This document shows, piece after piece, positions 4,984 through 63,938 of a stretch of 64,000 bases of DNA (position 1 is its first letter; each line of letters begins with the position of its first letter). The notes below the pieces were generated by a model, which was not told the DNA's origin, ran no database searches, and was given only the letters and a program-made list of their open reading frames with translations. Made by a program: the position numbers and the translations under genes. Origin of the DNA: a phage; NCBI GenBank assembly GCA_031520405.1, contig GCA_031520405.1_4842.1, one strand, 5' to 3'.

Positions 4984-5012
4984 AATGTATCTCCACGGTA
5001 TATTGTAACCAT

Positions 5013-5020
5013 ATTTATAA
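5013..5020 (-). promoter_or_regulatory. T4-type late promoter core (TATAAATA)
   Basis: Exact TATAAATA on the minus strand about 30 nt upstream of the ATG at 4983, with GGAG between them. Confidence 0.5.
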
Positions 5021-5032
5021 TGAGGACCGAAA

Positions 5033-5557
5033 ATGCACGCGTTCTGTTTCAGTAAAGTTGGAGAACAACTTACCATTAATTATCCGGATACAAATACGGA
5101 TTTCTTTGTATTGCTAACGGATTTCGCGAATAAATTGGGGATCAAGAATATCGCCATGACTGTGGGCGATATGAAATTTGGTCGTCTGGGTGTAAAAGAT
5201 TTATTGAATTACGGATTCAACGTAATCATTGTCGATCAGACATACAGCCCAATTGACGAGGAAGATGTTATTCCAGTTTGGGTTCAACGAGACATAAACA
5301 CTCTGGATAAGCATTATCTCGATTGTGTCATCATTGGCGAATTAATACCATATTTTCATAAACGTCGTCGGCTTGAATCAATTAAAAGTTATTTTCAAGA
5401 TAGCGATGACGGATATAAAATGGATGTCCTTACGAGCGGTTGGGTTGTGAAGAATACCACAGGCAATGCCGACCGAATTACTTCCCGTCTTTATGAATAT
5501 GTTAAAGAACGGGATTATGAACTGGAGAACAATAATGCCAAACGTAGAACGCGCTGA
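5033..5557 (+). CDS. hypothetical protein (174 aa)
   Basis: ORF with GAGGA RBS 7 nt upstream of the ATG; no recognisable motif. Confidence 0.5.
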   Translation: MHAFCFSKVGEQLTINYPDTNTDFFVLLTDFANKLGIKNIAMTVGDMKFGRLGVKDLLNYGFNVIIVDQTYSPIDEEDVIPVWVQRDINTLDKHYLDCVIIGELIPYFHKRRRLESIKSYFQDSDDGYKMDVLTSGWVVKNTTGNADRITSRLYEYVKERDYELENNNAKRRTR

Positions 5558-6020: not shown

Positions 6021-6057
6021 TCCGGTCTAAATACCCATAACACAATGAAACTTCGTT

Positions 6058-7674: not shown

Positions 7675-7770
7675 CTCAATAGCAAAACGCAGTATAATTA
7701 CACCGTCGGAATAATTGACAAATACATTTACAGAATAGCCCGAAGGGGCGGATTATAGAGGAATATTAAA

Positions 7771-9771: not shown

Positions 9772-9805
9772 GATGAGGACTCCATTTAAATAATATATCT
9801 GTTGA

Positions 9806-9813
9806 TATTTATA
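9806..9813 (-). promoter_or_regulatory. T4-type late promoter core (TATAAATA)
   Basis: Exact TATAAATA on the minus strand upstream of the GGAG and GTG start of gene 8830..9771. Confidence 0.5.
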
Positions 9814-9825
9814 AGGAGTTGACAA

Positions 9826-11643: not shown

Positions 11644-11720
11644 TATTCACGTCAGTCCGCGCTGTTCCAGCGTTCCGTTGTCTAACACAGAAGTGTTAAC
11701 CAACTTTTCAATAAAAAGTG

Positions 11721-11749
11721 GTTTACATCTTCTAAAAAGGCAGTATATT
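11721..11749 (+). promoter_or_regulatory. candidate sigma70-type early promoter (GTTTAC-N17-TATATT)
   Basis: -35-like GTTTAC and -10-like TATATT with 17-nt spacing, preceded by an A/T-rich TTCAATAAA motif, upstream of gene 11817. Confidence 0.4.
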
Positions 11750-11816: not shown

Positions 11817-12776
11817 ATGTCCTATATTCTTCATATCGAGTCCGGCCTGAAATTTGAAATTGATGGTAAAACCGCTGCTGATCTTCAAGCAGAAATCAAA
11901 GGTGCAGACCTTATCATCGGCAACGTCACGTTACGCCGTATGATGGAAGGCGTCCTCCAGTCAGCCAACGGCTTTGAACTCATTGAAGGTCTGAGCCAGG
12001 AAGAGAAAGAAGAGACTCTCGAAGCTCTTGACCGCGCTGAAGCCGAAAAAGTTAAACCGACCGAAGATGCGGGGGTTAAACAGGGCGACGGTGAATCAAA
12101 TCCGGTGATTGACGCCGAAGAAACGGTTGGGCAACCTGTCGGTGATCAAAATTCCCAGACCGTCGAAGACGGTTCTCTTGAAGTCAACAAAGACGGTTCC
12201 ATTTCCCTGGTAGTTGAAGGCGAAGAAGTTCTTGACGAAGAAGCGCAAGCCCGTGCTGAAGAAGTTCGCCGTCGTATGCTGGGCACAACCGTTGCTGAAG
12301 CAATCGCCGACGTTGAAAATCCGAAGGATGATCAGGCTTTAGCGAACGCGAAGGCGGTTCTGGCCAAGAAATCTTCTGAAATGCGCCCTGCATCTTCTAC
12401 CGAAGAACGCAAGCGTCGTCATAACAAGCGTGAAGAAATGGTTGAAGCGGCTCGCGCATCCAATTATGGTCCTATCCTGGCTGCGGTTGAATCGGGGGTT
12501 GTGCCTGGGGTTTATTTGAGCTATGTGAATCCGGATATGCGCTGGTTCCAGTTCCCTGTTACCGAACTGGCAGATGAAGCCAATCCACACGCCCGCACCA
12601 ATACTTATGTTGATCTGGCGCCGATCGTTTCCGGCGGCTGGGGGTTCAGTCTGTATGTGAATGGTAAATCATTCACCAAACGCCAGAAAATCAAAGAAAC
12701 TGATGCCGAATCTCTGGTGAAAGCAATCAATGAATGGTTGCCACAGGCGTTGGCCGAAGCGAAAGCTGCTGCGTAA
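11817..12776 (+). CDS. acidic hypothetical protein (319 aa)
   Basis: Long ORF, E/D-rich central region; terminator downstream. Confidence 0.55.
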   Translation: MSYILHIESGLKFEIDGKTAADLQAEIKGADLIIGNVTLRRMMEGVLQSANGFELIEGLSQEEKEETLEALDRAEAEKVKPTEDAGVKQGDGESNPVIDAEETVGQPVGDQNSQTVEDGSLEVNKDGSISLVVEGEEVLDEEAQARAEEVRRRMLGTTVAEAIADVENPKDDQALANAKAVLAKKSSEMRPASSTEERKRRHNKREEMVEAARASNYGPILAAVESGVVPGVYLSYVNPDMRWFQFPVTELADEANPHARTNTYVDLAPIVSGGWGFSLYVNGKSFTKRQKIKETDAESLVKAINEWLPQALAEAKAAA

Positions 12777-12804
12777 TTTAATTCAGAAGCATTCAATAGA
12801 TGAA

Positions 12805-12834
12805 GGGGCTGCTATAATAGCAGCTCCTTTTGTT
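12805..12834 (+). terminator. intrinsic terminator
   Basis: ggggctgct / agcagctcc stem followed by ttttgtttatt; a TATAAT lies within the loop region. Confidence 0.55.
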
Positions 12835-12848
12835 TATTGGAGCACACC

Positions 12849-13511
12849 ATGTCGTATTCGCTCAAAGGGTTGTTGAAGCGCCCCGTACATCTATTTGTAA
12901 AACCACCTGCTGTCGAAGGGGAATATCCGGCACGAGGAGAGTTGTATTACGTTAAAGGCTCCAACGGTAGCGGCAAGTCCACTGTCCCTTCCTATCTGGC
13001 GGAGAATGATCCTCAGGCGTATGTCGTGACCTACAATGGCAAGATCATGCTCACAGTTTGCCCTTCCTATAACATTATCTGTATTGGTAAATATGACAAG
13101 TCTAAGTCTAAAGGTGTTGATTCCCTGAAAGATACCGAGCAGATGTTGTTCGCCTTGTCCATTGCTGATCAGCCGGAATATCTGAAATATGACGTGTTGT
13201 TTGAAGGAATCATCCCTTCAACTTTGCTCAGCTCATGGATTCCCCGCCTGACGCGCCCACCGCGCGAATTAGTCGTGCTCTTCATGGACACCCCGCTTGA
13301 AACCTGTGTTTCCCGTGTGAAATCACGCAACGGCGGCGCAGACTTCAATGAAAGCCTGGTTGTCGAAAAGTGGGAGAGAGTTCATGACCACCGCCAACGG
13401 CATAAAGGCTTGTTCCCTACCGTTCCCGCAGGTATGATGAAGTCCAATGGCCTGACTATAGAGCAGGCTGTTTTTGCGTTTCTCAATCGTGATTTTGGGA
13501 GTATTGATTGA
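12849..13511 (+). CDS. P-loop NTPase / kinase-like protein
   Basis: Walker A GSNGSGKST and Walker-B-like YDVLFEG; start set at the ATG with GGAG RBS (track ORF begins at an upstream TTG); first gene of the hydroxymethylase operon. Confidence 0.55.
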   Translation: MSYSLKGLLKRPVHLFVKPPAVEGEYPARGELYYVKGSNGSGKSTVPSYLAENDPQAYVVTYNGKIMLTVCPSYNIICIGKYDKSKSKGVDSLKDTEQMLFALSIADQPEYLKYDVLFEGIIPSTLLSSWIPRLTRPPRELVVLFMDTPLETCVSRVKSRNGGADFNESLVVEKWERVHDHRQRHKGLFPTVPAGMMKSNGLTIEQAVFAFLNRDFGSID

Positions 13512-18997: not shown

Positions 18998-19060
18998 CTT
19001 CAATAATGGTGATCATAGGGTATAATCTCTATGATCTGAATATTAACCCAGGAGCACATC

Positions 19061-19393
19061 ATGTCGGATGTTGCATTTATAGCTGACCTGATTCGGGCGG
19101 CACAACAGGTGTGCCAGTCTGGAGAAACCAGTCTCAAACTCACTACAGAGCAGACTCTAGAATTTTATAAGAATCGTCGGCATTGGGGTAAGAATGTCAA
19201 GATACATTGCGAACCAGGTGAATTGGTTCAGCTTGATCTTCCGTCTTTTCCATTGCCAGTACAGACCAACACTCAGGAATATTACAATGTTGAAGGCGTT
19301 GATATTATTCCTAAGTTTGGTTTTCACAGTATCGTTTATTTCTTCCTGCGCCGTTTGGGAACCAGTATCGGTCCACTCGGTTCTCGTCATTAA
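19061..19393 (+). CDS. hypothetical protein (110 aa)
   Basis: ORF preceded by TATAAT at about 19032 and a GGAG RBS. Confidence 0.45.
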   Translation: MSDVAFIADLIRAAQQVCQSGETSLKLTTEQTLEFYKNRRHWGKNVKIHCEPGELVQLDLPSFPLPVQTNTQEYYNVEGVDIIPKFGFHSIVYFFLRRLGTSIGPLGSRH

Positions 19394-19405: not shown

Positions 19406-19708
19406 ATGTCAGTTGAACAAATTGGTTTTTATCAACTCCCTTCTGATCCAAAACTGCATCAAAAGATGATGCAGACTTTAGAAAATTGTCGTGCCGCCCA
19501 GATCCGTATCAAGTCTGAACAGACCTTTGTTACCGAAGCCCTGGCCGAATTGGCAAAAGAAACAGGCATCAAAACCGTTGATCTGCGCAAAGTCGTTACT
19601 GACCGCGCTGGCGGAACATACACCAAGACCATCGAGACCAGCGCCAAATACCAAGATCTCTATGAGTCTCTTTATCCTAATGCAGCGCCTGATCGCACTG
19701 CTGAATAA
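19406..19708 (+). CDS. hypothetical protein (100 aa)
   Basis: ORF with GAGGA RBS; terminator downstream. Confidence 0.5.
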   Translation: MSVEQIGFYQLPSDPKLHQKMMQTLENCRAAQIRIKSEQTFVTEALAELAKETGIKTVDLRKVVTDRAGGTYTKTIETSAKYQDLYESLYPNAAPDRTAE

Positions 19709-19716
19709 TATCGGTA

Positions 19717-19743
19717 AAAGCCCAACATTTGTTGGGCTTTAAT
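19717..19743 (+). terminator. intrinsic terminator
   Basis: aaagcccaac attt gttgggcttt hairpin directly after the stop of ORF 19406..19708. Confidence 0.6.
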
Positions 19744-19769
19744 TCAATAAAACTTTACTTCAATAAAAC
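19743..19769 (+). repeat. tandem direct repeat of ttcaataaaac (16-nt period, 2 copies)
   Basis: ttcaataaaactttac ttcaataaaacttgcg read directly; it contains the recurrent TTCAATAAA motif. Confidence 0.6.
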
Positions 19770-19782
19770 TTGCGGCTATCAT
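19754..19782 (+). promoter_or_regulatory. candidate early promoter (TTTACT-N17-TATCAT)
   Basis: T4-early-like -35 (TTTAC) and a -10-like hexamer with 17-nt spacing, about 45 nt upstream of the ATG at 19826 (GAGAGG RBS). Confidence 0.4.
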
Positions 19783-19825
19783 TTAACCTACATTGAAAAG
19801 TTTCACTACATCATGAGAGGCAAAA

Positions 19826-21019
19826 ATGAAAGCCAAGACCTTCAGCATCCCAATTGATAACATTGGTCGTGTCAAGGAACGTCTGGCCAAACTTGAAAGA
19901 ACGGCAAACCGCCTGAAACTCGAGTTCCCTCTTGTTGAGTTCAGTGAACCATACAAAACACAACATCGCGATTCTATCACTGGCGAAAAATTTTATCGTT
20001 GGTGGCAAGATTGTACTCTAACTGGTGAAGGCATCGACCGCCCCGTTTCTTATGGTGGGTGGAGTATCATTGGACAATTCAACCACCAGTATCCAAAAGT
20101 CATTCTGAATAAACTGTCAGATGACATCCACCCAAATTTCGTTCAAAGATTCGAAGCTGAAAACGTATCTTGGTGCGAGCATTGCAACAAATCTGTGCGT
20201 CGTCATAACACATATGTCGTTCGTAACGAACAATCTGGTGCACAGATGCTCGTGGGTAGCAGCTGTATGCATCATTATGTCCCGCATCAGAAATCCCTTG
20301 ATGCAGTTATGTCTTATTACATGTCTATTCACGAAATGTTTACTCCCGATGAAGATGACCCAGAAGGGATTTATCGGGTTAATGAACCAGATTATGTTGA
20401 CACAGAAGGATATTTGCGTAAATGCTTTCAGGTTTTGCTGTCCGGCCTGAGCATTAAAAGTGATGATTTTGGTCGGGTTCTTGGTCATATCTCTAGCGGC
20501 ACTCGTCCGGAGAAAGGTTCCGACGTAGAAATGTTTTACAATAAGGCTATCAAAGCTCGCGAAGATGCCCAATCAGAGATGTATCATATGATGCTTTTCA
20601 TCGCCGCGTTGTCTGAGAACAATGATTTCAACGTTCGTCTGAAACGTATGTGTGAACCTGGATATCACCTCGTTAAGGACTCAACAACAGTTCGTTGGGG
20701 AGCAGCAAAGTATTATGATTATATTCACACCCCGCGCCAAACGCGCACTGTATCAAATTGGGTTGGTGAAGTTGGTGAAATGTTAGAAGTACAGGTCAAA
20801 TTTGAAGTAAGGATTTTTCTGTATTCGTCTGATTATGGTGACACGTATCTGTATACTTTCAAAACCAAGGAAGGCAATACCATTACATGGAAGACTTCCT
20901 ATATGGAAACCGAGTTTTTAGAAGGCGATATGATCATTCGAGGTCGTGTCAAAGAATTGACCGAATTCAAAGGTATTAAACAAACTCAGATCACAAGGGC
21001 AAAACTGAGGAAATTATGA
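19826..21019 (+). CDS. hypothetical protein (397 aa) with Cys/His cluster
   Basis: Long ORF with WCEHC...SSCMHH metal-binding-like cluster and a beta-rich C-terminal region; function unknown. Confidence 0.6.
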   Translation: MKAKTFSIPIDNIGRVKERLAKLERTANRLKLEFPLVEFSEPYKTQHRDSITGEKFYRWWQDCTLTGEGIDRPVSYGGWSIIGQFNHQYPKVILNKLSDDIHPNFVQRFEAENVSWCEHCNKSVRRHNTYVVRNEQSGAQMLVGSSCMHHYVPHQKSLDAVMSYYMSIHEMFTPDEDDPEGIYRVNEPDYVDTEGYLRKCFQVLLSGLSIKSDDFGRVLGHISSGTRPEKGSDVEMFYNKAIKAREDAQSEMYHMMLFIAALSENNDFNVRLKRMCEPGYHLVKDSTTVRWGAAKYYDYIHTPRQTRTVSNWVGEVGEMLEVQVKFEVRIFLYSSDYGDTYLYTFKTKEGNTITWKTSYMETEFLEGDMIIRGRVKELTEFKGIKQTQITRAKLRKL

Positions 21020-21131: not shown

Positions 21132-21341
21132 ATGGAATGTTCATGCGGAGGGCAAGGCACAAGTGCATACTTGCCATTTAACACCGTGAAGGAAGCCGAA
21201 GAAGCCGGATATGCCGTGGATAAGGCTCCCTGTGTAATCGCCACCAAGGATTGTCCGTGCTGTAAGAGGCACTCTCAGGACGTTTGGTATGCCCCAGAAG
21301 CAAAGGGCAAAATTAATTTATTGAATATGATGAGGAAGTAA
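21132..21341 (+). CDS. small Cys-rich protein (69 aa)
   Basis: CSCGG ... CPCCK cysteine pairs suggest a zinc ribbon. Confidence 0.45.
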   Translation: MECSCGGQGTSAYLPFNTVKEAEEAGYAVDKAPCVIATKDCPCCKRHSQDVWYAPEAKGKINLLNMMRK

Positions 21342-21681: not shown

Positions 21682-21739
21682 AATAATTCTATTGAAGTCT
21701 CTGGGGTTATAATAACAAGACGAATAACCCTGGAGACAC

Positions 21740-23167
21740 ATGATGCTTCCTCTTTTAGAAATAATTCAAAATCTTCGCGATACTAAAGGCACCAACGCCA
21801 AGAAAGCTGTGCTGACCGAGGCGTTCAGAAACAACCCAGAATTGGTTGATTTCCTTCAATACGTCTACGACCCGATGCGTTCTTATTACCGCACTCAATT
21901 CAATCTAAACGCATTCCCTCGCATGCTCTCGCGCGGCGTTGTTGGTAGCTGGGATCAGGTTTATGACGTTCTCGATATGATGGCCGAACGCAAGATCGGT
22001 GGGATGAAGGCAGATCAAGAACTTGCGAAGGCCGCGACCAACATTCATCCGGATTACCATACCCTGATACAAATTATACTCGACAGAGACATCAAAGCGG
22101 GAATTGCCGAGAAAGGTATAAACGCAGCATTCAACGCAGCAGGTGGTACAGGGCGTCTGATTAATATCCTTCCATATCACCGTTATGATAACATGACGAT
22201 TGACTTGCTGAAGAAGATGGACTTCAAGCGCGGCGTCTTCAGCCAGCTGAAGTCAGATGGCATGTTTGCCAACATCATCTGTCGTTATGGAAGAGACCCA
22301 GAGATTCGTTCTCGTTCCGGTTCTCTTATTGCGGGTGGTTCCGTTGATAACCTGTCATTGGTTTTCAAAGACCTGATCTACGATGCGGGGATTGGTGAAA
22401 GCGTCTTCCATGGTGAACTGCTCGTCATTGATCTGAAAACGAATACAGTGTTGCCTCGGGCTATCGGCAATGGTAAGCTCAACAGTGTTATCCAAACGGG
22501 TGAACCCCTGGAAGATCGTTACAAGGTGATCTATCGGGTATGGGACGTTGTGCCGTATGATAATTGGTTCAATGCTCAGCGTGTGGATACCCCATATGAG
22601 CGCCGTTTTGATATCATACAACAGTTGTTCGAAGGGGATGACGGACTGGTTCAGGTTCAAGAAACCCGTGTTGTTCATTCATTTGAAGAAGCTGTCGAAC
22701 ACTTCAAAGACGCTTTGGCTCGTCGGGAAGAAGGCACGATTTGTAAGGCCGCAGATATGCCTTGGGAAGATGGAACATCATCTGAAGGGTTAAAGCTAAA
22801 AATGGAAGTAGAATGTGACCTTGAAATCGTTGGCTTCAACGAGGCCGATAAGAAAGGGAAGCACGCCAAGACATTTGGATCTCTCCTCTGCAAGACCTCT
22901 GATAGCCTCTTAGTTGTTGGCGTATCGGGTATCTCAGATGAGTTGAGACTACGAATGTGGGAAAACCAAGAGGACTTCATTGGTAAGATTGCCGCCGTGC
23001 TCTCTAATGGTGTACAGGATAAAACCGATGACGCCATGAAGTCTCTATTCCTTCCACGTCTCGTTGAAGTACGCACAGACAAGAAAGTCGCTAATACACT
23101 GGCTGAAGTCTATGCTATCCAGAAAGCATATATCGAAAATATTTTGGTGTTGTTGGAAGCGGCATGA
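21740..23167 (+). CDS. 30: ATP-dependent DNA ligase (gp30-like)
   Basis: Adenylation motif I KSDG (QLKSDGMF), motif EGTICK and C-terminal LPRLVEVRTDK characteristic of ATP-dependent ligases; 475 aa. Confidence 0.85.
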   Translation: MMLPLLEIIQNLRDTKGTNAKKAVLTEAFRNNPELVDFLQYVYDPMRSYYRTQFNLNAFPRMLSRGVVGSWDQVYDVLDMMAERKIGGMKADQELAKAATNIHPDYHTLIQIILDRDIKAGIAEKGINAAFNAAGGTGRLINILPYHRYDNMTIDLLKKMDFKRGVFSQLKSDGMFANIICRYGRDPEIRSRSGSLIAGGSVDNLSLVFKDLIYDAGIGESVFHGELLVIDLKTNTVLPRAIGNGKLNSVIQTGEPLEDRYKVIYRVWDVVPYDNWFNAQRVDTPYERRFDIIQQLFEGDDGLVQVQETRVVHSFEEAVEHFKDALARREEGTICKAADMPWEDGTSSEGLKLKMEVECDLEIVGFNEADKKGKHAKTFGSLLCKTSDSLLVVGVSGISDELRLRMWENQEDFIGKIAAVLSNGVQDKTDDAMKSLFLPRLVEVRTDKKVANTLAEVYAIQKAYIENILVLLEAA

Positions 23168-23172
23168 AAATT

Positions 23173-23190
23173 GGGGTTCTTCGGAACCCC
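23173..23190 (+). terminator. GC hairpin (terminator-like, weak U-tract)
   Basis: ggggttc ttcg gaacccc right after the ligase stop, followed by TTCAATAAA and a TATAAT hexamer. Confidence 0.4.
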
Positions 23191-23244
23191 ATTCAATAAA
23201 GACAGTAGCAGTATAATTCCAAGAAATCATTACCAGGTGTTATT

Positions 23245-23508
23245 ATGAAACTTATTGATAAGAAACCAAGGAAAGACAATGATTCTCTTAATCTCATAAA
23301 CATTATGAGGGAATTGGGAGTTTCTGAATTACAGATGATGAAGATGATGAATTGTTCTGATGTCGTTTATAATTGGACCAACGGCTATCGTCTCATACCA
23401 AAATCTTTTCGGCGTTTTATTCTGGCGTTGGTTTTTATTCACCGACAAGGGAAGACAGAAGAGTTTCAACGTTTCGTTCGCACAGAGGAGAGATCACGTG
23501 GTTGGTAA
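23245..23508 (+). CDS. small protein with helix-turn-helix-like segment
   Basis: LINIMRELGVSELQMMKMM resembles an HTH motif; 87 aa; an alternative overlapping ORF exists in another frame. Confidence 0.4.
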   Translation: MKLIDKKPRKDNDSLNLINIMRELGVSELQMMKMMNCSDVVYNWTNGYRLIPKSFRRFILALVFIHRQGKTEEFQRFVRTEERSRGW

Positions 23509-24314: not shown

Positions 24315-26255
24315 TTACCAATCCCAGAGAATGCGCCCTGTATCAGTACGGTTGGACGGCTCCAACTGTGAACTATTGAAGTTGTTCGTCGTACTGACTT
24401 TCTTCGAGTTGTCCACATTTTGTTGTACTGGAACCACAACACTGGCTGGCGGGTTAGCATAGGCGGATTTAACTTCTTCGATGTTATTGGCTGCTCTTCC
24501 TTGAACCGGATAAGCCCCGCCCAGAGTACCTCCCCCAATCCCTGCGTATGCGTCTTTCAATTGTGAAGTTCTATCCGTAACGTTGACAGCGTCTGAGGAC
24601 ACCCCAGAAGGCATCGGAGTTAACGTGCTGATATTGGCATTGGGTTGTGCTGGTGATTGGCTGCTTGGAGGCGTAGACGCATTCTCAGGAGCCTTATCGT
24701 CTTGGCTGATTAGCATAGACTGTCTTGCTTCCGCCATTTTGTTCCTGGCTGCTTCACCACCCAGAGCATCAGGTATGATACTCACGAATTTATCCACGAT
24801 ATCAAACATGGCATTGGTTATGGCATTCAACATATTAAAGAATGGTTTCTTCACGTTTTCCGCAAATCCTTTCTTCATATCTTCAACGACTTTATTTGCA
24901 GCCGCCATGCCATCATCAATCAATCCTGATATCCCGCCCGTTACCCAATCAACCAATTTTATCAATTGGCCTTGTAAGTTGTCTGCAAGTTTACCAGGGA
25001 TTTCGGTCAGTGCTGTCCCTTTACCGATCCCAGCAAACAGATCGTTGGATACCCAATCAACGATAGAATTGAGCCAGCGCACTGGTGCTTCGGTCATCTT
25101 CAATACTTGTTCACGGAACGCCTTTCCAAATCCTGCGTTATCCCAACCAAATATTTCAGCCACCCAATCAGCCAGATCTCCGAAACTGCCAACAAGTTCT
25201 GTTATACCCGCCTGAACCCTGTCTACTATTGAAACTTGGGCTTTGCCAAGGATTTCTTTAGCATTGAAGAAACCTTTACCGAATTCAAATACAGATGTTA
25301 TCAGAGCCAAAGGTCCGACTCGAAGCATCTTGGTCGCTGCTTTCAAAGGCTTCAATAGACCACCGATGCCCATCCCGAATCCCATGAATAATTTGATGAA
25401 TCCTCCAATAAGTTTTAGGGGAGACATCAGGAGTTTCAATGCTCCCAAGCCGAGGAGTGCACCCAGCGCCGCGCCCATACCGGAAGATTGCCCGTCCTGT
25501 TTTGGTTCAGAAGGTGGAATAGAACCTGCTTCGGGATTGTTCTTGTTCTCTTTACCTTCTTCGCCGCGCCGGAATTTCTCTTCTTCTCGATATTTTTGAT
25601 CACTCTCATAGATACGCGTTAATGTGTCATTGAGGTCTTCATTCATGTACCCCAATTTATCATCAATGCTGTCAAGACGAGTAACGGTTTCGTTGTTGGC
25701 ATCTTTATTGAAGTCTAGCGTGTCCTTATGAGTCTGGAGCATTATGTCGGTCAGGTTTACAATCTTCCCTCCCACCAATGCCAGTTTGTCCTGTAATCCA
25801 TCAAGACGTTCTAGACTATCTTCATTCGCTGCTCCTAATTGATCCGATATCATGTCAAGATATTCAACAGACATATCATCAACAGGACCATTCGCCGCTT
25901 CGCCAAATTTTTCTATTTTGGTTGCGATTCGCATCAGTTCTTCATTTCCGTCCTTGGAAAGGCTGACAGTGTCTTTCATCCACGTGCTATAGTCCCTTGT
26001 GAAAATAGGACTAACGCGAACGAACCCACCAACGATGTCATTCACCGATGGGAATTTGATTGGAGGGACTTTCTGCTCCTGATTAGACGCCTGTCTTGTC
26101 TTCAGAGATTGCAGTTGTTTGTTGACATCAGCGAGCTGTTTATTCGTCTCGGATTGGGCGCGCAATTGCTTGCGCTCCATCATTTCCTTTTTGATTTTAT
26201 CCAAGACCTTGACGATGTCCTGCTGCCCTGGTGTCGGTTGATTGTTATCTGCCAT
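24315..26255 (-). CDS. tail tape-measure / baseplate hub protein (gp29-like)
   Basis: 646 aa with coiled-coil N-terminal region and a long Gly-rich hydrophobic core (GMGAALGALLGLGALKLL...GFGMGIGGLL) typical of tape-measure proteins. Confidence 0.6.
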   Translation of the reverse strand: MADNNQPTPGQQDIVKVLDKIKKEMMERKQLRAQSETNKQLADVNKQLQSLKTRQASNQEQKVPPIKFPSVNDIVGGFVRVSPIFTRDYSTWMKDTVSLSKDGNEELMRIATKIEKFGEAANGPVDDMSVEYLDMISDQLGAANEDSLERLDGLQDKLALVGGKIVNLTDIMLQTHKDTLDFNKDANNETVTRLDSIDDKLGYMNEDLNDTLTRIYESDQKYREEEKFRRGEEGKENKNNPEAGSIPPSEPKQDGQSSGMGAALGALLGLGALKLLMSPLKLIGGFIKLFMGFGMGIGGLLKPLKAATKMLRVGPLALITSVFEFGKGFFNAKEILGKAQVSIVDRVQAGITELVGSFGDLADWVAEIFGWDNAGFGKAFREQVLKMTEAPVRWLNSIVDWVSNDLFAGIGKGTALTEIPGKLADNLQGQLIKLVDWVTGGISGLIDDGMAAANKVVEDMKKGFAENVKKPFFNMLNAITNAMFDIVDKFVSIIPDALGGEAARNKMAEARQSMLISQDDKAPENASTPPSSQSPAQPNANISTLTPMPSGVSSDAVNVTDRTSQLKDAYAGIGGGTLGGAYPVQGRAANNIEEVKSAYANPPASVVVPVQQNVDNSKKVSTTNNFNSSQLEPSNRTDTGRILWDW

Positions 26256-29189: not shown

Positions 29190-29242
29190 GGTCTGAAGCC
29201 CTTTAATTAGAATAGAGTGATGACACTATTTAGGACTAGAAT

Positions 29243-31222: not shown

Positions 31223-31744
31223 TTAATTCCTTACTTTGTCTGGGTTGGATAAGATTTGTTCGTATCCGACTTCGCCTTGATCGTCGAAAACATGCTGAAG
31301 AATCGCCATATCGTCTACCATCCGATAAACTTCAATTCCAGCGTTCATCAATTTTTTGATTCCATCCATGATACGATATGGCTCTTGATAATATACTTTA
31401 TCGATCTTGCCGTTGTCGATGATCTTCTGAGTGCAATCAGGGCATGGGCTATGTGTCACAAACATAACCAACCCTGTGAAATCATCTGCATTTTCGGGGA
31501 TACGCATTAGAGCATTTTCCTCCGCATGAATGACACACGGGTTTGTAACAATTTGCCCGTGTTGTTCCATCTCACAAACATTCGGCATGCCAGGAGGCGT
31601 TCCGTTCCATCCGATAGCCACAGGCTGATCAGTTTCAGGGTTTACGATAACACAACCGACTTGCAGACGCCGAGCATAACTGGTTACACCATATGCTGCA
31701 GCTGATCGCATATGGGCGAACATCATTCGTGGTTTGATAGCCAT
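31223..31744 (-). CDS. cd: dCMP deaminase
   Basis: Zinc-binding deaminase motifs HAEENAL and SPCPDC; 173 aa. Confidence 0.8.
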   Translation of the reverse strand: MAIKPRMMFAHMRSAAAYGVTSYARRLQVGCVIVNPETDQPVAIGWNGTPPGMPNVCEMEQHGQIVTNPCVIHAEENALMRIPENADDFTGLVMFVTHSPCPDCTQKIIDNGKIDKVYYQEPYRIMDGIKKLMNAGIEVYRMVDDMAILQHVFDDQGEVGYEQILSNPDKVRN

Positions 31745-32061
31745 TATTTTACCAGAGCCTTTTCAAGTAAAAAGATCATGTCATCCTGGTCGGCGCGGCC
31801 AAAGATCTGACCGAGTGACACCATGGAATGAACCTCTTTGACAATCAGGTCTTTGCCTGTTACACCGCTGCTGTCCAATTCGAGAATTGTAGACATGCGC
31901 TCAACCATATGAGGTGGATGATTGATATAACGTTGAAGATACTTTTCACGCAACGCAATTTTTTCGATAAGATCTGACATTTCTGCATTCTCTTCTGAAT
32001 ACAGACGTTCTTTAGATTTCAGTTCTTCGAGGCGTTCGTACATTTCTTTTAATGAAATCAT
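31744..32061 (-). CDS. hypothetical protein (105 aa)
   Basis: Start moved to the ATG with GGGAG RBS (MISLKEMY...), just downstream of a hairpin. Confidence 0.45.
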   Translation of the reverse strand: MISLKEMYERLEELKSKERLYSEENAEMSDLIEKIALREKYLQRYINHPPHMVERMSTILELDSSGVTGKDLIVKEVHSMVSLGQIFGRADQDDMIFLLEKALVK

Positions 32062-32082
32062 GTTTGTCTCTCCCAATAAATT

Positions 32083-32105
32083 AAGGGGAAGTATACCTTC
32101 CCCTT
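32083..32105 (-). terminator. hairpin terminator-like element
   Basis: aaggggaag tatac cttcccctt; flanked on the plus strand by CTTCAATAA. Confidence 0.45.
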
Positions 32106-32124
32106 TCTTCAATAACCTAAAATA

Positions 32125-37579: not shown

Positions 37580-37628
37580 GTTATTTGTCTCATTATGGGG
37601 TTAGGCGGCAATTATACCGCCAATTTAT

Positions 37629-38042
37629 TCAATAGAGGTCTTCGGAAAAGAGTTCTTTGAAAGGAGTGTTCTTCAAACGGACCTGATTAGTTTGTCCGGC
37701 TTCACGAGCGACCACAGCGGCCTCTTCACGGGACATCCATTGCCCATAGTTATCAATAAACCCTTGTTCACGAGTGTGGGTGGTTTCGATAATACCTGCT
37801 TCCTTCAATCGTTTGAGTTGCGTGTTCATCAATTTGTCGTGATGTCGGGCGCTTACAACGATCACATCACCATATTTGTTGGCAGCAGCCACAACACGCC
37901 GATCAAACTTGGTTGGGTCAGGTATATCACGAGTATACAAGGCGATGTGAGTGTCGTCCACGTCCCCTTTCACCTCAGAATATAACTGACACCCATTAGG
38001 AGATCCAGTAGGTAAAGAACGAAAATATCCAAGTAATTTCAT
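37629..38042 (-). CDS. hypothetical protein (137 aa)
   Basis: ORF from track. Confidence 0.45.
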   Translation of the reverse strand: MKLLGYFRSLPTGSPNGCQLYSEVKGDVDDTHIALYTRDIPDPTKFDRRVVAAANKYGDVIVVSARHHDKLMNTQLKRLKEAGIIETTHTREQGFIDNYGQWMSREEAAVVAREAGQTNQVRLKNTPFKELFSEDLY

Positions 38043-43315: not shown

Positions 43316-43825
43316 CTAGCCCAGAAATACTACTAAAGTCAAATTTGTGAGACTGGTCCGAGCATCCTGCAACATTTCACGGGCAGCGGCTAAACGTTTT
43401 ACATCATGTAGAGTGTCAGAGAACACGATTATGTTAGCCTTATCGATCCTGGTCCCCATGAAATGGGTGATTGTCGTCGTGCTCTCTTTCTTGTCGACAT
43501 CAGGGATAAGTAATTCTTCGCCCGTCTGAGGGTTGCGGGAAGGATAGAAGAATGCATCACGTTCACGAGAAGTATGGAAGACGCCAAACACATATGCGTC
43601 GTTTTCGACCTGAAACTTTTTAGAAAGTAGTTTCTTCAGAGCGGCTGTATGTCCGGTCTGGCGGAGCATTCTGTAGTAGAGCATGTTGCCGGAGCAAATA
43701 GGGTCTATCACTCCCCTAATTTGACGTTCCTTTTGTATCTCATACGCATCTGCCACAAGCTGCTGGATCATATCGACATGGGCATTCATGGAGATTTCTA
43801 TTTTACGTTTGATCATAGATTGCAT
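43316..43825 (-). CDS. hypothetical protein (169 aa)
   Basis: ORF from track. Confidence 0.5.
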   Translation of the reverse strand: MQSMIKRKIEISMNAHVDMIQQLVADAYEIQKERQIRGVIDPICSGNMLYYRMLRQTGHTAALKKLLSKKFQVENDAYVFGVFHTSRERDAFFYPSRNPQTGEELLIPDVDKKESTTTITHFMGTRIDKANIIVFSDTLHDVKRLAAAREMLQDARTSLTNLTLVVFLG

Positions 43826-47707: not shown

Positions 47708-50449
47708 TTATGCCCCGAGAATACGTTTTGAAATAGCCTTCACAAATCTAGTGGCATCTTCAATCGCGTTGTGTGCCGAAGGCTGATATGTTGACATCAT
47801 GAATTTCACCAAACGATGACATTCAACTCGGTATCGGTTTTTGGCCTTTTGCTTTTGAGATATAGTGCTAGTGACCTTTATCTCATCAAATCCTTCAGCA
47901 GTTAATTTTTCATTCAATAAATCAACAACTTGAGTTAACTGGTTACAGGCGCGGAAAAATCTCGTAGTTGAGAAAGGCATTTCTATATGATAATGTAATT
48001 CCTCAACAGCCTTGCGGAAATAACCGTACCCCGATCCAGACGGATTTCGTTTGGCCAGCATACGAACAATCTTCCATTCTTCTTCAGTGATTTGTTGTTT
48101 CGCATAACTGATGATTGCTTTTGCCCTGTGTTGATGATGGGCATAGCCATCCGTAACTTTTCCATGGGAATCAATCAACAGCTTGGCACCATAATCAATG
48201 CGATGAGACATGATGTTTATGCCCTTGCGAAGTTTCAGGAGTTTCTTAGATTCAAGCGCCTGAAATTCATCTTTATAATGCTCAAGCAACATATCAAACA
48301 CTGCGTCAATGGGGATGAATACTTCTGGGAATTTCTTCATCATCGGAACAGATTTACGACGCGCAAGAACGATTGTTGGATGTGCTCCCAGCAAATCAAA
48401 CAGGTTTTCGTTTCCATTCTCGCCGAACTTCGTTCTTTCCATCGCTTCACGCAAATGTCCAGCCGCGGATTGTCGTAAGGTATTACCATGAATTTTATGG
48501 ATACCTTCTCGGCCAGATACTTCGATATATACGATCTTTTTGCCCGAATCAATAATATCTGAAACGGTTTTTCCATCTAATTCATAAACGCGGTCGAAGT
48601 TAAATGAATTGTAATGGAAACTAAACATCCCAGGATCTTTTTCAACGGTCGGGCGAACATATTCCATTTCATGCATGAAATAGACTTCATCCGGATTGAA
48701 TAAATCGCCAAAGACCTCGATCAGTTTATCGGCAAAGACCAGGTAGTCCGGCGTTGTTTCTTGTACACCGATCCATGATTCAAAATAAGACTTCAATTCC
48801 TCATGGTTGGTAAATGATTCTTTATGTGCCGCCAGCTGATTCCGATTACTGAAATAATTTTCATTCGGTTTGACGACGATAACGACATTGAAGTTATTGC
48901 GTGCTGTTTGTATCTTCAGGTTTCGAGCACGATTCGAGTTATCAATAATAACAGCAATTTTTGATTTAGATTTCAACCAATTTCCGACAGAGTTCACATA
49001 AATGCTGTCGTGTACTACACCGTTGTCGTGTACTTCAATTTCGTAAGGACTACCAATAGACCGGAAAGGTGCATCCAAAGAGTAATCGCGCACGACGTCC
49101 GGCGCTCCGATATAACGGAACGTGCCTTTGTAGAAACGGTTATCTGCAGGAAATTCTCGCTCCACTAATTTACGGAAACCGCTACCGAACATATCGGTCA
49201 ATTGAGCCTTCTTCATATAAAGCATAAGAGGACCCATAGATTCGGCCTGGCGAAGTTCATACATCTTCGCCTGCATAATATTGTCAGCCACATATTTGAA
49301 CACTCGGTTCAGGCTTTCACGGGTGAACTCGTCATATGACAAGTCTTCACGTGATGGAGGAACATTCAATTCTCCAAGTTCGAAGAAGGTATAGGAACTC
49401 GGGAATTTTTCCAGCACGGTGCATATTTCAGAGTCCAATTGGTCGAGATCTATCGGGTAAGAAACCCCGCCCATGACAGCATAGTGGATGTTGTCGGAAT
49501 CTGACTTCGGTTGGATATATGTGTTACCTACACGGTTTTCGAAGTTGATGTCAGACCAACGGAAAGAATAACTGGCGTTTTCAACCTTCGGTCGCATTGA
49601 AGGTCGCATCACTCGACCCAAACGGACCAACTCTTGTTCAAAGGCGGTAAACCGCTGATTCTTTACAGGAACTTTAACAGTCAGGCCGTTGAACTCATCA
49701 GTGTCCTCCGGTTTAGGATCACGGGTATCTAAATCCTTGGTAATGAGATCCACAGTTGGGATTCTGTCCGCATTCAGATACATCAGGAAACGATACAGTT
49801 TCCCTTCATAGCGACTTTCTACTGTAAATGAATCAGATACAGCAAATGGGGATTTAGAACCTAGCCCAAACGCCCCTATTTGCCCGTCGTCGTCCTCTTT
49901 TGTACTATGGAAGAGTGTTGTATACAAACCAGGTCCACGAATGATCTCGCCATCCTCAGCGCGGAATACCAGTACCCCATTATAATAACCAGGTGTACCA
50001 ATAACAGCAGTGCTATCAGGGATTTCGTCTTCCTTCACGACGATATTACCTTCAACCAGCACTTCATCTTCACGCGCTGTAATAGGCTCGCCGATGATCA
50101 TTTCTAATGGAAGACCAACCCCATAATCTTTAATTTCCAGCCAGGGTTCCATAACATCCGGTAAATGTACAACAACAGGAGTTCCCTTGGGGGCAAGATG
50201 TTTGCTGTATCGTTGAGGCATAGGAGTGAGAGGAGCATAATGCGATGGCATCCAGCGTTGTTGGCGATCACGCATATTATGTGAGTCTATACCATTACAC
50301 AACGTCTCACGCAAAGACGCCGCCTCTTTATATTTGTAGAGACTTGAAAATAATGTTTCAAATAATTTATCCGTCATCTTGACATTGAATGTCTGTCCGA
50401 CGATGGTAGAAGAAGAGCGCACGAAATGCTCGGACTTGCGCATTTTCAT
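47708..50449 (-). CDS. rIIA: rIIA-like protein with GHKL (Bergerat-fold) ATPase domain
   Basis: N-box ETLCNGID, G1 box DYGVGL, G2 box IGAFGLGSKSPF near the N-terminus; 913 aa; position upstream of the rIIB-like gene and near topoisomerase II genes. Confidence 0.55.
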   Translation of the reverse strand: MKMRKSEHFVRSSSTIVGQTFNVKMTDKLFETLFSSLYKYKEAASLRETLCNGIDSHNMRDRQQRWMPSHYAPLTPMPQRYSKHLAPKGTPVVVHLPDVMEPWLEIKDYGVGLPLEMIIGEPITAREDEVLVEGNIVVKEDEIPDSTAVIGTPGYYNGVLVFRAEDGEIIRGPGLYTTLFHSTKEDDDGQIGAFGLGSKSPFAVSDSFTVESRYEGKLYRFLMYLNADRIPTVDLITKDLDTRDPKPEDTDEFNGLTVKVPVKNQRFTAFEQELVRLGRVMRPSMRPKVENASYSFRWSDINFENRVGNTYIQPKSDSDNIHYAVMGGVSYPIDLDQLDSEICTVLEKFPSSYTFFELGELNVPPSREDLSYDEFTRESLNRVFKYVADNIMQAKMYELRQAESMGPLMLYMKKAQLTDMFGSGFRKLVEREFPADNRFYKGTFRYIGAPDVVRDYSLDAPFRSIGSPYEIEVHDNGVVHDSIYVNSVGNWLKSKSKIAVIIDNSNRARNLKIQTARNNFNVVIVVKPNENYFSNRNQLAAHKESFTNHEELKSYFESWIGVQETTPDYLVFADKLIEVFGDLFNPDEVYFMHEMEYVRPTVEKDPGMFSFHYNSFNFDRVYELDGKTVSDIIDSGKKIVYIEVSGREGIHKIHGNTLRQSAAGHLREAMERTKFGENGNENLFDLLGAHPTIVLARRKSVPMMKKFPEVFIPIDAVFDMLLEHYKDEFQALESKKLLKLRKGINIMSHRIDYGAKLLIDSHGKVTDGYAHHQHRAKAIISYAKQQITEEEWKIVRMLAKRNPSGSGYGYFRKAVEELHYHIEMPFSTTRFFRACNQLTQVVDLLNEKLTAEGFDEIKVTSTISQKQKAKNRYRVECHRLVKFMMSTYQPSAHNAIEDATRFVKAISKRILGA

Positions 50450-50520
50450 AGTATAGAATTCCTGTTCAGATCAAAGAAGAACACATTATTGGGTAAGGTT
50501 ATGATACTGGCGGGTGGTTC

Positions 50521-50548
50521 AATAGAAAAGCCTCCAATCGGAGGCTTT
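50521..50548 (-). terminator. intrinsic terminator
   Basis: aaagcctcc aatc ggaggcttt hairpin followed on the minus strand by tctatt; sits between gene 50557..50910 and rIIA. Confidence 0.6.
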
Positions 50549-52103: not shown

Positions 52104-52138
52104 GGGGATAGAGCAATAATACCCTATCCCCATTTATT
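52104..52138 (-). terminator. GGGG hairpin element with flanking TTCAATAAA motif
   Basis: ggggatag / ctatcccc stem with 12-nt loop; T-tracts on both sides; paralogous to the element at 55335..55377. Confidence 0.45.
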
Positions 52139-52147
52139 GAAGAACTA

Positions 52148-55321: not shown

Positions 55322-55364
55322 TTGCAAAAAGAAAGGGGAACGGGCTAATAATAACCCATTCCCC
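55322..55364 (-). terminator. GGGG hairpin terminator with flanking TTCAATAAA motif
   Basis: ggggaacggg / cccattcccc imperfect stem; on the minus strand it is followed by tttcttttt; near-identical architecture to the element at 52104. Confidence 0.5.
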
Positions 55365-55392
55365 TTTATTGAAGAACGCAATCGCAATCAGA

Positions 55393-58835: not shown

Positions 58836-59592
58836 TCAGGCGGTTCACCACTTCGACAATATTGCGGTTCAGGAAGTCGAAGTGGTTCTGGCCTTCTACT
58901 GGTTTAATATAAAGCATATCTTCCGAGTTCGAAAGATCCAGTTTTTCATAATTTCCCTGAGGAACAAAGATGACAAAAATATTGTTCATCGCACAGGGTT
59001 CAACGTATTTCGGGTTATCATCAATTAAAACATCACCTGCCAAAAGATGCTTTTCGTCGGTGCTGACAAACCCGTTGAAGATGCCAGGGAACTTGTCATA
59101 GACAAACTGGCGCTTGCTGCGCTCGTGTTCTGGCTCACACTTAGATACTGCGATCAATTCAACATTTTCAAAGTCTTCGAGAAGGATCTTCTTCAGATTC
59201 ACCAGGAACTCGTAAGCGCCTGGAAGCGGGTTCATCTTGGCATACAGGTCCGGCATGCGCCACCAATCCATAGGATCACGTCCTGTAGGTGAATCCATCC
59301 ATTGACCAGCAACAAACACACGGCGCGTCAACCATGCTGGGTGAGCGCGTTCCCGCATGAGGATCGCCAAATCACCAGCATGAGCCATATAGCACTCTTT
59401 GGTGATACGCTGGAAATCATTGGGATAATCATGACAACCCATGTTTTCAGCAGCAGCTTTTGAATTGGAAATATTAAACCAATCCACCCAAGGGGAGAGG
59501 CTATCAACCAAAGTCAAGTCTACGTCTACCAGGATACGATACATTCCACCGATTTTAGAATTGGCATCATACAGACCAACATGATTATTCAT
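58810..59592 (-). CDS. HAD-superfamily 5'(3')-deoxyribonucleotidase-like protein
   Basis: HAD motif I VDVDLTLVD (DxDxT) near the N-terminus and a DD motif (GDVLIDDN) near the C-terminus; start set at the ATG with GGAGAAG RBS. Confidence 0.5.
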   Translation of the reverse strand: MNNHVGLYDANSKIGGMYRILVDVDLTLVDSLSPWVDWFNISNSKAAAENMGCHDYPNDFQRITKECYMAHAGDLAILMRERAHPAWLTRRVFVAGQWMDSPTGRDPMDWWRMPDLYAKMNPLPGAYEFLVNLKKILLEDFENVELIAVSKCEPEHERSKRQFVYDKFPGIFNGFVSTDEKHLLAGDVLIDDNPKYVEPCAMNNIFVIFVPQGNYEKLDLSNSEDMLYIKPVEGQNHFDFLNRNIVEVVNRLIGHYQYVH

Positions 59593-59929
59593 CAGACTTC
59601 TCCACTTGATCATAACCAGTTGCGGTGCATTGCTCTTCTGTGCAATCTGCATACAGAACCACAGAAGATTCCTTCACGTAAGTGGTACAGTGATAGGTTT
59701 CATCTTCCTGGATGGAATCGTCATAATTGCAAACAGTTTGCAACGGACCAGGAGTGGTGTTATCCAACGCAGCATGTGCCTTGATGGTGTCTTCCATCTT
59801 ATTCACCGCTTGCTGATTGGTGAACGTCGGCGCATCGAGGTCAACAGTAGACGCAACGTCCAGAAGGGTAGAGCATGCAGTGGTAGAGAAAGCCAGAGCA
59901 CACACCAGAAGAATCTTATTGAGTTTCAT
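59585..59929 (-). CDS. predicted lipoprotein
   Basis: MKLNKILLVCALAFSTTAC: signal peptide with a lipobox-like Cys; 114 aa. Confidence 0.45.
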   Translation of the reverse strand: MKLNKILLVCALAFSTTACSTLLDVASTVDLDAPTFTNQQAVNKMEDTIKAHAALDNTTPGPLQTVCNYDDSIQEDETYHCTTYVKESSVVLYADCTEEQCTATGYDQVEKSDE

Positions 59930-59957
59930 AACAATACCTGTTGTCAAAGGGATAACA

Positions 59958-59990
59958 GGGGGAATTATATCCCCCTTTGGTTTATTGAAT
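59958..59990 (-). terminator. GC hairpin with flanking TTCAATAAA motif
   Basis: ggggga attata tccccc stem directly downstream of the DNA polymerase stop; motif TTCAATAAA between the stop and the hairpin on the minus strand. Confidence 0.4.
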
Positions 59991-63892: not shown

Positions 63893-63910
63893 AATATTTA
63901 TTGAATAAAG

Positions 63911-63938
63911 TTTACTTCTTCAATAACTGGCGTATACT
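63911..63938 (+). promoter_or_regulatory. candidate early promoter (TTTACT-N16-TATACT)
   Basis: -35-like and -10-like hexamers embedded in an inverted TTATTGAA / TTCAATAA pair, about 50 nt upstream of the ATG at 63988. Confidence 0.4.

Follow-up and report, generated by a model that had tools for sequence, protein, structure and literature searches.

TTCAATAR, a probable upstream element of early and middle-type promoters in Ackermannviridae phages

The 8-mer TTCAATAR is probably (with a probability of roughly 0.72) the upstream element of a family-specific set of pre-late promoters, both early and middle-type, in phages of the Ackermannviridae. It is a conserved element, constrained in position and located next to promoters. 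As read from the sequence, the sites that carry it would be active promoters of the early or middle class with putative transcription start sites. The ViI-like phages of this family are widely used in biocontrol, diagnostics and tailspike engineering. The window (the whole stretch of DNA analysed, 64 kb in length) is a segment of a Kuttervirus (Ackermannviridae, ViI-like) genome, as judged by an identity of ~98% over 6 kb to the Salmonella phages PM10, 38 and Det7. Its gene map comprises 97 genes moved from the Det7 annotation by tblastn and four further ORFs. The whole sequence of Det7, assembled with its annotation, served as the comparison genome.

The intergenic share of the window is small, at ~3-3.3 kb (~4.7%). 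A first-pass annotation had read a recurrent intergenic 9-mer as a dedicated regulatory or processing signal, not as an effect of A/T richness, and had proposed a comparison with shuffled controls. This comparison has been run, and the motif frequency far exceeds the expectation from composition. Against dinucleotide shuffles of the window, TTCAATAAA was observed 12 times with 1.46 expected, and TTCAATA 51 times with 15.5 expected. When only intergenic DNA is considered and its own composition is used as the null, TTCAATAR occurs 14 times against 0.62 (with a maximum of 4 in any shuffle) and TTCAATAAA 8 times against 0.14. Intergenic DNA does have a lower GC content than the window overall (38% versus 44%), which would favour the motif as a chance product of A/T-rich sequence. 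This explanation is of negligible probability, since the counts exceed the null of intergenic composition itself and the sites are conserved at orthologous positions across genera.

When every 8-mer of the complete Det7 genome was ranked by intergenic enrichment, without prior selection, TTCAATAA came first, above terminator stems and the late-promoter-like CTAAATAC. The intergenic 7.5% of the Det7 sequence holds 25 of the 43 copies (p ~1e-17). Within genes of the window, exact 9-mers are found at 5200, 21317, 25704 and 47913 (n=4), and the 34 intragenic copies of TTCAATA represent about twice the expectation, an excess that may be an effect of codon usage. A scan of IMG/VR for TTCAATAA-N12-TATAAT gave scattered single matches among the matches listed.

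Every site reported in the first-pass annotation was present, at 0-6 nt from the position given there. The refined positions are:

11707, 12792 (TTCAATAG), 18999, 19743 with 19759 (tandem, 16-nt period), 23192 and 32108: motif copies
52133-52141, 55365-55373 and 59981-59989, minus strand: motif copies
63897-63905 (minus) and 63919-63926 (plus): inverted pair

Copies absent from that annotation were found in reverse orientation at 21689-21696 (ligase), 37628-37635 and 50518-50525 (rIIA), and with one mismatch at 7675-7682 (gp32).

The motif is arranged in two layouts. In the first, a single 8-mer in either orientation precedes a -10 box by 11-14 bp (mode 12), which places it at about -32 to -25. 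The -10 boxes of the cassettes are of the sigma-70 type (TAnnnT), with TATAAT, TATTAT, TATACT or TATCAT at each. Forward copies of the 8-mer begin at 7675 (one mismatch), 12792, 18999, 23192, 52141 (minus), 55373 (minus) and 59989 (minus):

7675-7698, plus strand: probable cassette with one mismatch, CTCAATAG, N10, TATAAT; before the gp32-like ssDNA-binding protein gene at 7771
12792-12830, plus strand: single-copy cassette, TTCAATAG, N13, TATAAT (12813-12818) at the apex of terminator hairpin 12802-12830; before the gene at 12849
18999-19036, plus strand: single-copy cassette, TTCAATAA, N14, TATAAT (19021-19026) in the loop of hairpin 19011-19036; before the gene at 19061
23172-23217, plus strand: single-copy cassette, terminator hairpin 23172-23191, TTCAATAA (23192-23199), N12, TATAAT (23212-23217); before the gene at 23245 and the helicase loader gene
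52104-52141, minus strand: single-copy cassette, TTCAATAA (52134-52141), N12, TATTAT (52116-52121) in the loop of terminator hairpin 52104-52131
55334-55373, minus strand: single-copy cassette, TTCAATAA (55366-55373), N12, TATTAT (55348-55353) in the loop of terminator hairpin 55334-55365
59958-59989, minus strand: single-copy cassette directly past the DNA polymerase stop codon, TTCAATAA (59982-59989), N12, TATAAT (59964-59969) in the loop of hairpin 59958-59975

Reverse copies, with the layout YTATTGAA-N11-12-TATAAT, begin at 21689, 32115 (minus), 37635 (minus) and 50525 (minus):

21689-21737, plus strand: reverse cassette, CTATTGAA, N11, TATAAT (21708-21713) in the 5' arm of the long hairpin 21697-21737; before the DNA ligase gene at 21740
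32085-32115, minus strand: reverse cassette, TTATTGAA (32108-32115), N12, TATACT (32090-32095) within hairpin 32085-32103
37604-37635, minus strand: reverse cassette, CTATTGAA (37628-37635), N11, TATAAT (37611-37616) in the loop of hairpin 37604-37621; before the gene at 37579
50501-50548, minus strand: reverse cassette, terminator 50526-50548, CTATTGAA (50518-50525), N11, TATCAT (50501-50506); before rIIA (start 50449)

The nearness of the motif to TATAAT-like hexamers, remarked on in the first pass, is borne out by the composite TTCAATA-N11-15-TATNAT, which is found 7 times in the window against 0.09 expected. Det7 contains 12 forward composites against 0.8 and 6 reverse composites (YTATTGAA-N10-13-TAnnnT) against 0.28. 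Start codons lie 50-75 nt downstream of the motif, and for gene-facing intergenic composites of Det7 this distance is 51-92 nt, most being 51-67 nt. The enrichment, the fixed spacing to the -10 box, the constant distance to the start codon and the conserved orthologous intergenic sites with diverged flanks all support a dedicated signal. On reading of the sequences, the single-copy cassettes have neither a usable -35 hexamer at 16-18 bp nor a TGn extended -10 box. A generic sigma-70 scan of the window yielded 29 matches against 25.6 expected, with no enrichment over shuffles, which explains why only about eight promoters appear in published genome papers.

The genes behind the single-copy cassettes belong to DNA replication, recombination and nucleotide metabolism, together with small genes without known function. 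Among them are the gp32-like gene, the DNA ligase gene and rIIA, a cluster that follows the helicase and another with the helicase loader, as well as genes past the DNA polymerase and within the nucleotide-metabolism block. Structural genes have different upstream motifs, TATAAATA or CTAAATA. Because replication genes and small genes carry the motif and structural genes carry others, the motif marks pre-late transcription units. The T4-type late promoter (gp55), with TATAAATA at -10, is not found at the motif sites; TATAAATA and CTAAATA occur at other intergenic regions, before structural genes.

This arrangement is similar to that of the middle promoters of T4, of which the present phage is a distant relative with gp55/gp33-type late transcription. 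Both combine a sigma-70-type -10 box with a phage-specific element near -30, located 11-14 bp upstream of it in place of a -35 hexamer. The genes served are also alike (gp32, ligase, helicase loader, rIIA/B and nucleotide metabolism). A difference from the T4 middle promoters is that extra copies of the motif here flank promoters of the early type.

In this second, multi-copy layout, two or three 8-mers surround the TTTACT -35-like hexamer of a sigma-70-like promoter. It is found at 19743/19759, 63898/63919 and 11707. The interval 19717-19797 contains the following elements:

19717-19740, plus strand: T-run stem-loop (AAAGCCCAACATTTGTTGGGCTTT) terminating the DsbA-like gene 19406-19708, at the upstream edge of this interval
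19743-19750, plus strand: TTCAATAA, copy 1, upstream of the -35-like hexamer
19754-19759, plus strand: -35-like hexamer TTTACT, 17 bp from the -10 box
19759-19766, plus strand: TTCAATAA, copy 2, within the spacer of the promoter and 10 nt upstream of its -10 box
19777-19782, plus strand: -10 box TATCAT of an early-type promoter that would serve gene 19826-21019 (397 aa, function not known)
19791-19797, plus strand: CATTGAA, a degenerate inverted copy past the -10 box, which reads TATTGAA in other genera

The other early-type promoters are:

11707-11749, plus strand: TTCAATAA (11707-11714), TTTACA (11722-11727), 16 bp, TATATT (11744-11749); before the gene at 11817
63898-63938, plus strand: TTATTGAA (63898-63905), N13 containing TTTACT (63911-63916), TTCAATAA (63919-63926), N6, TATACT (63933-63938)

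The pattern is TTATTGAA, N13-14 with the hexamer inside, TTCAATAA, N6-10 and the -10 box, often with a further TATTGAA at or just past the -10 box. The -35-like hexamers, TTTACT or TTTACA, bear a weak resemblance to TTGACA and are 16-17 bp from the -10 box. Their association with the motif, noted in the first pass, was confirmed (2 observed, 0.02 expected). The layout at 63898-63938 is also found in Det7 and phiEa2809. The motif stands at several offsets from the -10 box (N5-10), and such variation resembles operators more than a core promoter element.

With a transcription start ~7 nt past the -10 box, copy 1 (19743-19750) would occupy about -46 to -39. The proposal of a promoter UP-like element fits only the most upstream copy of the multi-copy promoters. 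In the orthologues of this promoter, the stem at 19717-19740 is conserved with variable loops in other genera. An exact TTCAATAA is present within this promoter region in every orthologue examined: in the Agtrevirus-like AV101 and in Limestonevirus the upstream copy is exact and the spacer copy degenerate (TTTCAAGA), and in the Taipeivirus-like phages it is the upstream copy that is degenerate (TTTCAAAA).

None of the genes after the multi-copy promoters has a known function in Pfam or PHROGs. Small genes without known function are typical of early (host-takeover) genes. The multi-copy promoters share several features with the early promoters of T4, which have a GTTTAC-type -35 and conserved upstream A/T: a (G/C)TTTACT at -35, a TATAAT-like -10 box at 16-17 bp, conserved sequence beyond both hexamers and small genes without known function behind. 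They differ in that the extra sequence here consists of two or three repeats of one discrete 8-mer, each in a defined orientation, with copies also in the spacer and after the -10 box.

The adjacency of the motif to GC hairpins noted in the first pass holds. Of the 11 single-copy cassettes, 8 have their -10 box within a GC hairpin, mostly at the apex, and in two further cassettes a terminator is found immediately before the motif. Folding z-scores of the hairpins range from -3.6 to -7.4. A GC-rich stem-loop followed by a T-run, the form of an intrinsic terminator, is present at 12802-12830, 19717-19740, 23172-23191, 50526-50548, 52104-52131 and 55334-55365; no T-run follows the hairpins 19011-19036 and 37604-37621. 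Several of the hairpins with a T-run also score as terminators. The stems differ by genus, with, for example, GGGGCTGC/GCAGCTCC in Kuttervirus, GGCCGC/GCGGCC in Taipeivirus and GGGACTGC/GGCGGTCCC in Nezavisimistyvirus. The fold and its apical TATAAT are kept between genera despite these changes. In the hairpin downstream of the helicase gene, 3 of 8 pairs have changed on both sides, and 95% of cells are paired compared with 30-46% when the partner is slid. The frequent G-U pairs of this hairpin indicate an RNA structure, in read-through transcripts, rather than a DNA cruciform.

Each GC hairpin belongs to the transcription unit upstream, as an RNA stem-loop or an intrinsic terminator. Hairpins stand either before the motif or after it, in the latter case around the -10 box, and yet the distance between motif and -10 box is fixed; the hairpin is therefore a separate, overlapping element and not part of the motif. 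The terminator would overlap the next promoter, usually with the -10 box at its apex, to form a compact stop-and-restart cassette. A transcript from the overlapping promoter would escape that terminator because it lacks the 5' arm of the stem. Overlapping terminator/promoter units of compact phage genomes are similar in having a GC stem and T-run a few bases before the next unit. Here the -10 box is usually at the terminator apex itself, and is kept there with compensatory stem changes across genera. Such cassettes are compact insulating parts which may serve synthetic biology. They are distinct from the N4-type hairpin promoter, which has a 3-nt loop and is read by a virion RNA polymerase: the apex here carries a TATAAT box, G-U pairs point to RNA, and there is no phage RNA polymerase gene in the Det7 annotation.

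The position of the motif beside stem-loops, typical of RNase E sites and terminators, and the behaviour of the hairpins as RNA structures that tolerate G-U pairs, would suit a signal at the RNA level, either a processing site (e.g. for RNase E) or part of a terminator. The former was one of three options put forward in the first pass, the others being a promoter UP-like element and a binding site for a phage transcription factor. It is disfavoured because the motif works in both orientations relative to transcription, at an equal distance from the -10 box, and sits upstream of the inferred transcription start. A role at the RNA level is made very improbable further by the variable place of the hairpins against a fixed -10 spacing, by the multi-copy promoters, where copies flank the -35-like hexamer, and by the window having no match to any Rfam family. 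A promoter element or transcription factor site gives the best fit of these options.

The motif is present at orthologous sites in five further sampled lineages (Agtrevirus-like AV101, Limestonevirus, two Taipeivirus-like lineages and Nezavisimistyvirus) and in a distant Vibrio phage. At orthologous intergenic sites of AV101, Kamild/LIMEstone1, Madison and IME250 the 8-mer is identical and the flanks and spacer have diverged. The site downstream of the helicase gene was compared in 13 distinct sequences, 12 from four genera (Kuttervirus, Agtrevirus-like, Limestonevirus and Taipeivirus-like) and one from Erwinia phage phiEa2809. The 8-mer and GGTATAAT are essentially invariant among them, the exceptions being TTCAATAC in one sequence and AGTATAAT in phiEa2809 only; the bases preceding the motif and those of the spacer differ. 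Conservation of the motif is similar at the ligase, regulator-downstream and 12792-type sites.

The genome of phiEa2809 (Nezavisimistyvirus, 50% GC) has 27 motif copies in 100 kb against 3.0 expected, and 11 composites with a -10 box against 0.24. Before its gp32-like gene, at the orthologous place, there is TTCAATGG-N11-TATAAT with a hairpin. In the distant Vibrio phage K362, 8 copies are found in 40 kb against 2.1 expected, within the same cassettes. Conservation from Salmonella to Vibrio phages fits direct reading by a conserved host polymerase equally well. The ligase promoter has a reverse copy in five lineages and a forward copy in phiEa2809, at an equal distance from the -10 box, and this flip between genera indicates that both orientations function. 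Function in both orientations is unusual for an activator that contacts RNA polymerase.

The likeness to T4 middle promoters does not extend to the MotA/AsiA system. The MotA box, (a/t)(a/t)(a/t)TGCTTtA, is unrelated in sequence to TTCAATAR, and MotA sites have one orientation whereas the present motif works in both. T4 encodes MotA and AsiA, for which a phmmer search of all Det7 reading frames, using T4 query sequences, gave nothing below E = 0.4; they were likewise not detected by Kutter 2011 (PMC3184105). As the sequence differs, both orientations work and no homologue is detectable, membership in that system fails.

The motif could instead be read directly by the host RNA polymerase with no extra factor, the sites being strong host-type early promoters. 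The motif might then be an unconventional -35 or spacer element, or a UP-like element, contacted by region 4 of sigma-70 or by the C-terminal domain of alpha, which the phage may first ADP-ribosylate. Across phages that infect Salmonella, E. coli, Dickeya, Klebsiella, Serratia, Erwinia and Vibrio the motif does not vary; the polymerases of these hosts are highly conserved, and early genes need the unmodified host polymerase since no phage polymerase is encoded. The multi-copy promoters carry the TTTACT -35-like hexamer at 16-17 bp, and the TT favoured at the third and second positions ahead of the motif could belong to a weak -35 hexamer. Det7 gene 48 matches the RNA polymerase ADP-ribosylase family. 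Sites for the alpha domain tolerate both orientations. The geometry argues against such a contact, as TTCAAT is 14 bp and the reverse TTGAAN 10-11 bp from the -10 box whereas sigma-70 accepts 16-18 bp, and the TGn extended -10 box is absent from the single-copy promoters. The alpha domain normally binds upstream of -38 and not at -30. The strict 8-mer shares just 3 of 6 bases with TTGACA, which is not what a -35 surrogate predicts. Direct reading is therefore considered unlikely, if still a serious alternative to a family-specific promoter element.

A purely negative role has also been considered, in which the motif would serve a repressor or a nucleoid-type protein as its operator, and the pre-late promoters would be shut off or tuned through it. 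The motif works in either orientation, and its places near -30, within the spacer and directly past the -10 box are ones at which a bound protein would occlude the polymerase. Inverted pairs occur at fixed spacing around the -35-like hexamer (TATTGAA-N13/14-TTCAATA, between 7-mers) and, in phiEa2809, across the -10 box (TTCAATAA-N8-9-TTATTGAA, between 8-mers). Candidates for the bound protein are a phage HU/IHF-family protein (by analogy with TF1 of Bacillus phage SPO1), the DsbA-like protein and host H-NS. Det7 gene 59 encodes a protein of HU/IHF type (PF00216, E = 1e-29), which also matches TF1 structures; the motif precedes this gene itself, and the Vibrio relative also encodes an HU/IHF-type protein. 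The DNA of ViI-like phages reportedly has a hypermodified thymidine derived from hydroxymethyl-dU. TF1 is an HU-family protein that binds hydroxymethyluracil DNA at early promoters. The two systems are alike in thymidine-hypermodified DNA, in the HU/IHF-family protein and in a location on pre-late promoters. TF1 is without a short strict consensus, unlike the motif here, and a TF1-like role would be repression only. For H-NS, TCAATAAAT resembles its high-affinity site, TCGATAAATT.

Against an operator is the single-copy layout, in which promoters without a -35 hexamer of their own would have no means of recognition if the site were purely negative. The IHF consensus WATCAANNNNTTR shares only TCAA with the motif, and no T preference is seen at the TTR positions among 29 intergenic instances. 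Nor would a phage be likely to keep nucleation sites for H-NS at promoters that it needs itself. A purely negative element is judged unlikely, if still a serious alternative, and an upstream promoter element is the preferred reading.

For such an element, a mechanism may be proposed in which host RNA polymerase with sigma-70 would read the -10 box, and a dedicated factor with sequence specificity would recognise the 8-mer at about -30. At the single-copy promoters this factor would replace the -35 contact, as does the MotA box in T4, and at the multi-copy early promoters it would have a modulating function. It would most likely be phage-encoded and conserved across the family. A wider model, offered tentatively and with doubt, is that in the Ackermannviridae and related Vibrio phages a regulator non-homologous to MotA/AsiA directs the host sigma-70 polymerase to replication-gene promoters via an orientation-independent 8-mer at -30. 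The same protein, at two to three copies around -35 and -10, might lower the early promoters, and the terminators with the next -10 box at their apex might form a conserved stop-and-restart module.

By analogy, the phage HU/IHF-family protein (Det7 gene 59) is a candidate reader. The 100-aa 'transcriptional regulator' encoded at 19406-19708 is a homologue of T4 DsbA (PF11126 on homologues) and a weak candidate only; its AlphaFold model (pLDDT 72.8) has no significant fold match. A 169-aa 'histone-like' protein (43316-43825) was considered because its position between the rIIB and topoisomerase genes resembles that of T4 motA. It was rejected, with weak matches of its model (pLDDT 84.5) to RecA-like/helicase C-terminal domains and none to DNA-binding regulators. 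The sigma-70-family protein of Vibrio phage K362 was rejected as a shared reader, there being no homologue in Det7.

In the ViI-like phage CBA120, eight sigma-70-like promoters only were reported, early promoters were not identifiable and no MotA/AsiA was found (Kutter 2011, PMC3184105). The same applies to phiSboM-AG3, where early and middle signals were not found (Anany 2011, PMC3121705). In the LIMEstone paper, promoters were predicted only by similarity to T4 consensus sequences. The motif would thus mark promoters that earlier genome papers missed, and implies a reader. The unusual features of this phage-specific -30 element are its orientation independence, the multi-copy bracketing of early promoters and the -10 box at terminator apices. 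A full-text literature search found no mention of TTCAATAA in ViI-like phages, with an earlier description in the Viunalikevirus genus paper being possible. The abstract of that paper is said to mention 'conserved regulatory sequences'.

The motif supplies a testable promoter map, with ~15 promoters in the 64-kb window and ~30 motif sites per genome, and separates pre-late from late transcription units. It also provides a bait sequence for finding the proposed regulator. A suspected conserved start-codon context, CATCATG, occurs at only 4 of 101 genes. The positions of the motif correct at least two annotated start codons.

The 5′ untranslated region that follows the 18999 promoter, CTGAATATTAACCCAGGAGCACATCATG (window 19037-19060, +), is nearly invariant over four genera, and at the relatives' loci compared here (L010-L028) it is more strongly conserved than the adjoining coding DNA. 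The tandem-motif promoter, with copies at 19743 and 19759 (+), is the predicted promoter driving the second of two genes in this region.

Genes adjoining the tandem-motif promoter
19406-19708 (+), 100-aa 'transcriptional regulator' of the T4 DsbA family (PF11126 on homologues)
19826-21019 (+), conserved 397-aa protein, function unassigned

The DsbA-family protein is kept from Kuttervirus to Erwinia phages; comparison of its fold with solved structures returned nothing significant. The 397-aa protein contains a zinc-like CxxC...CxHH motif, and its C-terminal segment looks like an OB fold.

The same TTCAATAA cassettes, each a motif copy with a -10 box at fixed spacing, are present in the distantly related Vibrio phage K362. 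This phage encodes a sigma-70-family protein, containing regions 2 and 4 together with additional helix-turn-helix segments, for which no homologue was found in Det7. Its 383-aa neighbour has 53% identity to Det7 gene 191.

Sigma-70-family gene of Vibrio phage K362
L170:1867-3669, 600-aa protein, adjoining the DNA polymerase gene

The presence of a promoter cassette inside the annotated 5′ ends of two genes, 31744-32112 (-) and 59585-59947 (-), indicates that the TTG starts transferred to them are probably wrong. The former has an alternative ATG with a Shine-Dalgarno sequence near 32061, while a downstream ATG of the latter, near 59922, matches the usual motif distance of ~60 nt.

Copies of the motif also occur within genes, four of them exact.

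Intragenic copies of TTCAATAAA in the window
5200-5208 (-)
21317-21325 (-)
25704-25712 (-)
47913-47921 (+)

Overall, TTCAATA occurs in the coding DNA of the window at ~2x the shuffle expectation. The intragenic copies and this excess may reflect either internal promoters or an effect of codon usage.

A further annotation, that of a 169-aa protein, was re-evaluated.

Protein labelled 'histone family DNA-binding'
43316-43825 (-), 169 aa

This label looks unfounded, as sequence comparison with Pfam and PDB gave zero matches and the AlphaFold model (pLDDT 84.5) bears a weak likeness to RecA-like or helicase C-terminal domains.

Structural genes are preceded by late-promoter-like motifs which differ from TTCAATAA.

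Regions with late-promoter-like motifs in the window
4984-5032 (-)
9772-9825 (-)
6021-6057 (+)
29190-29242 (-)

The T4-type TATAAATA lies upstream of the genes for the gp26-like baseplate hub and the tail tube, and CTAAATAC(CC) and CCTAAATAG lie upstream of the genes for the RuvC-like and gp48-like proteins. Of the 21 copies of CTAAATA in Det7, 15 are intergenic. Strong intergenic enrichment was also recorded among 8-mers of the Det7 genome (L002-L005) for ACCCCGCC/GGCGGGGT (12/16 copies) and AACCCCGC (11/13), which suggests a common terminator stem sequence.
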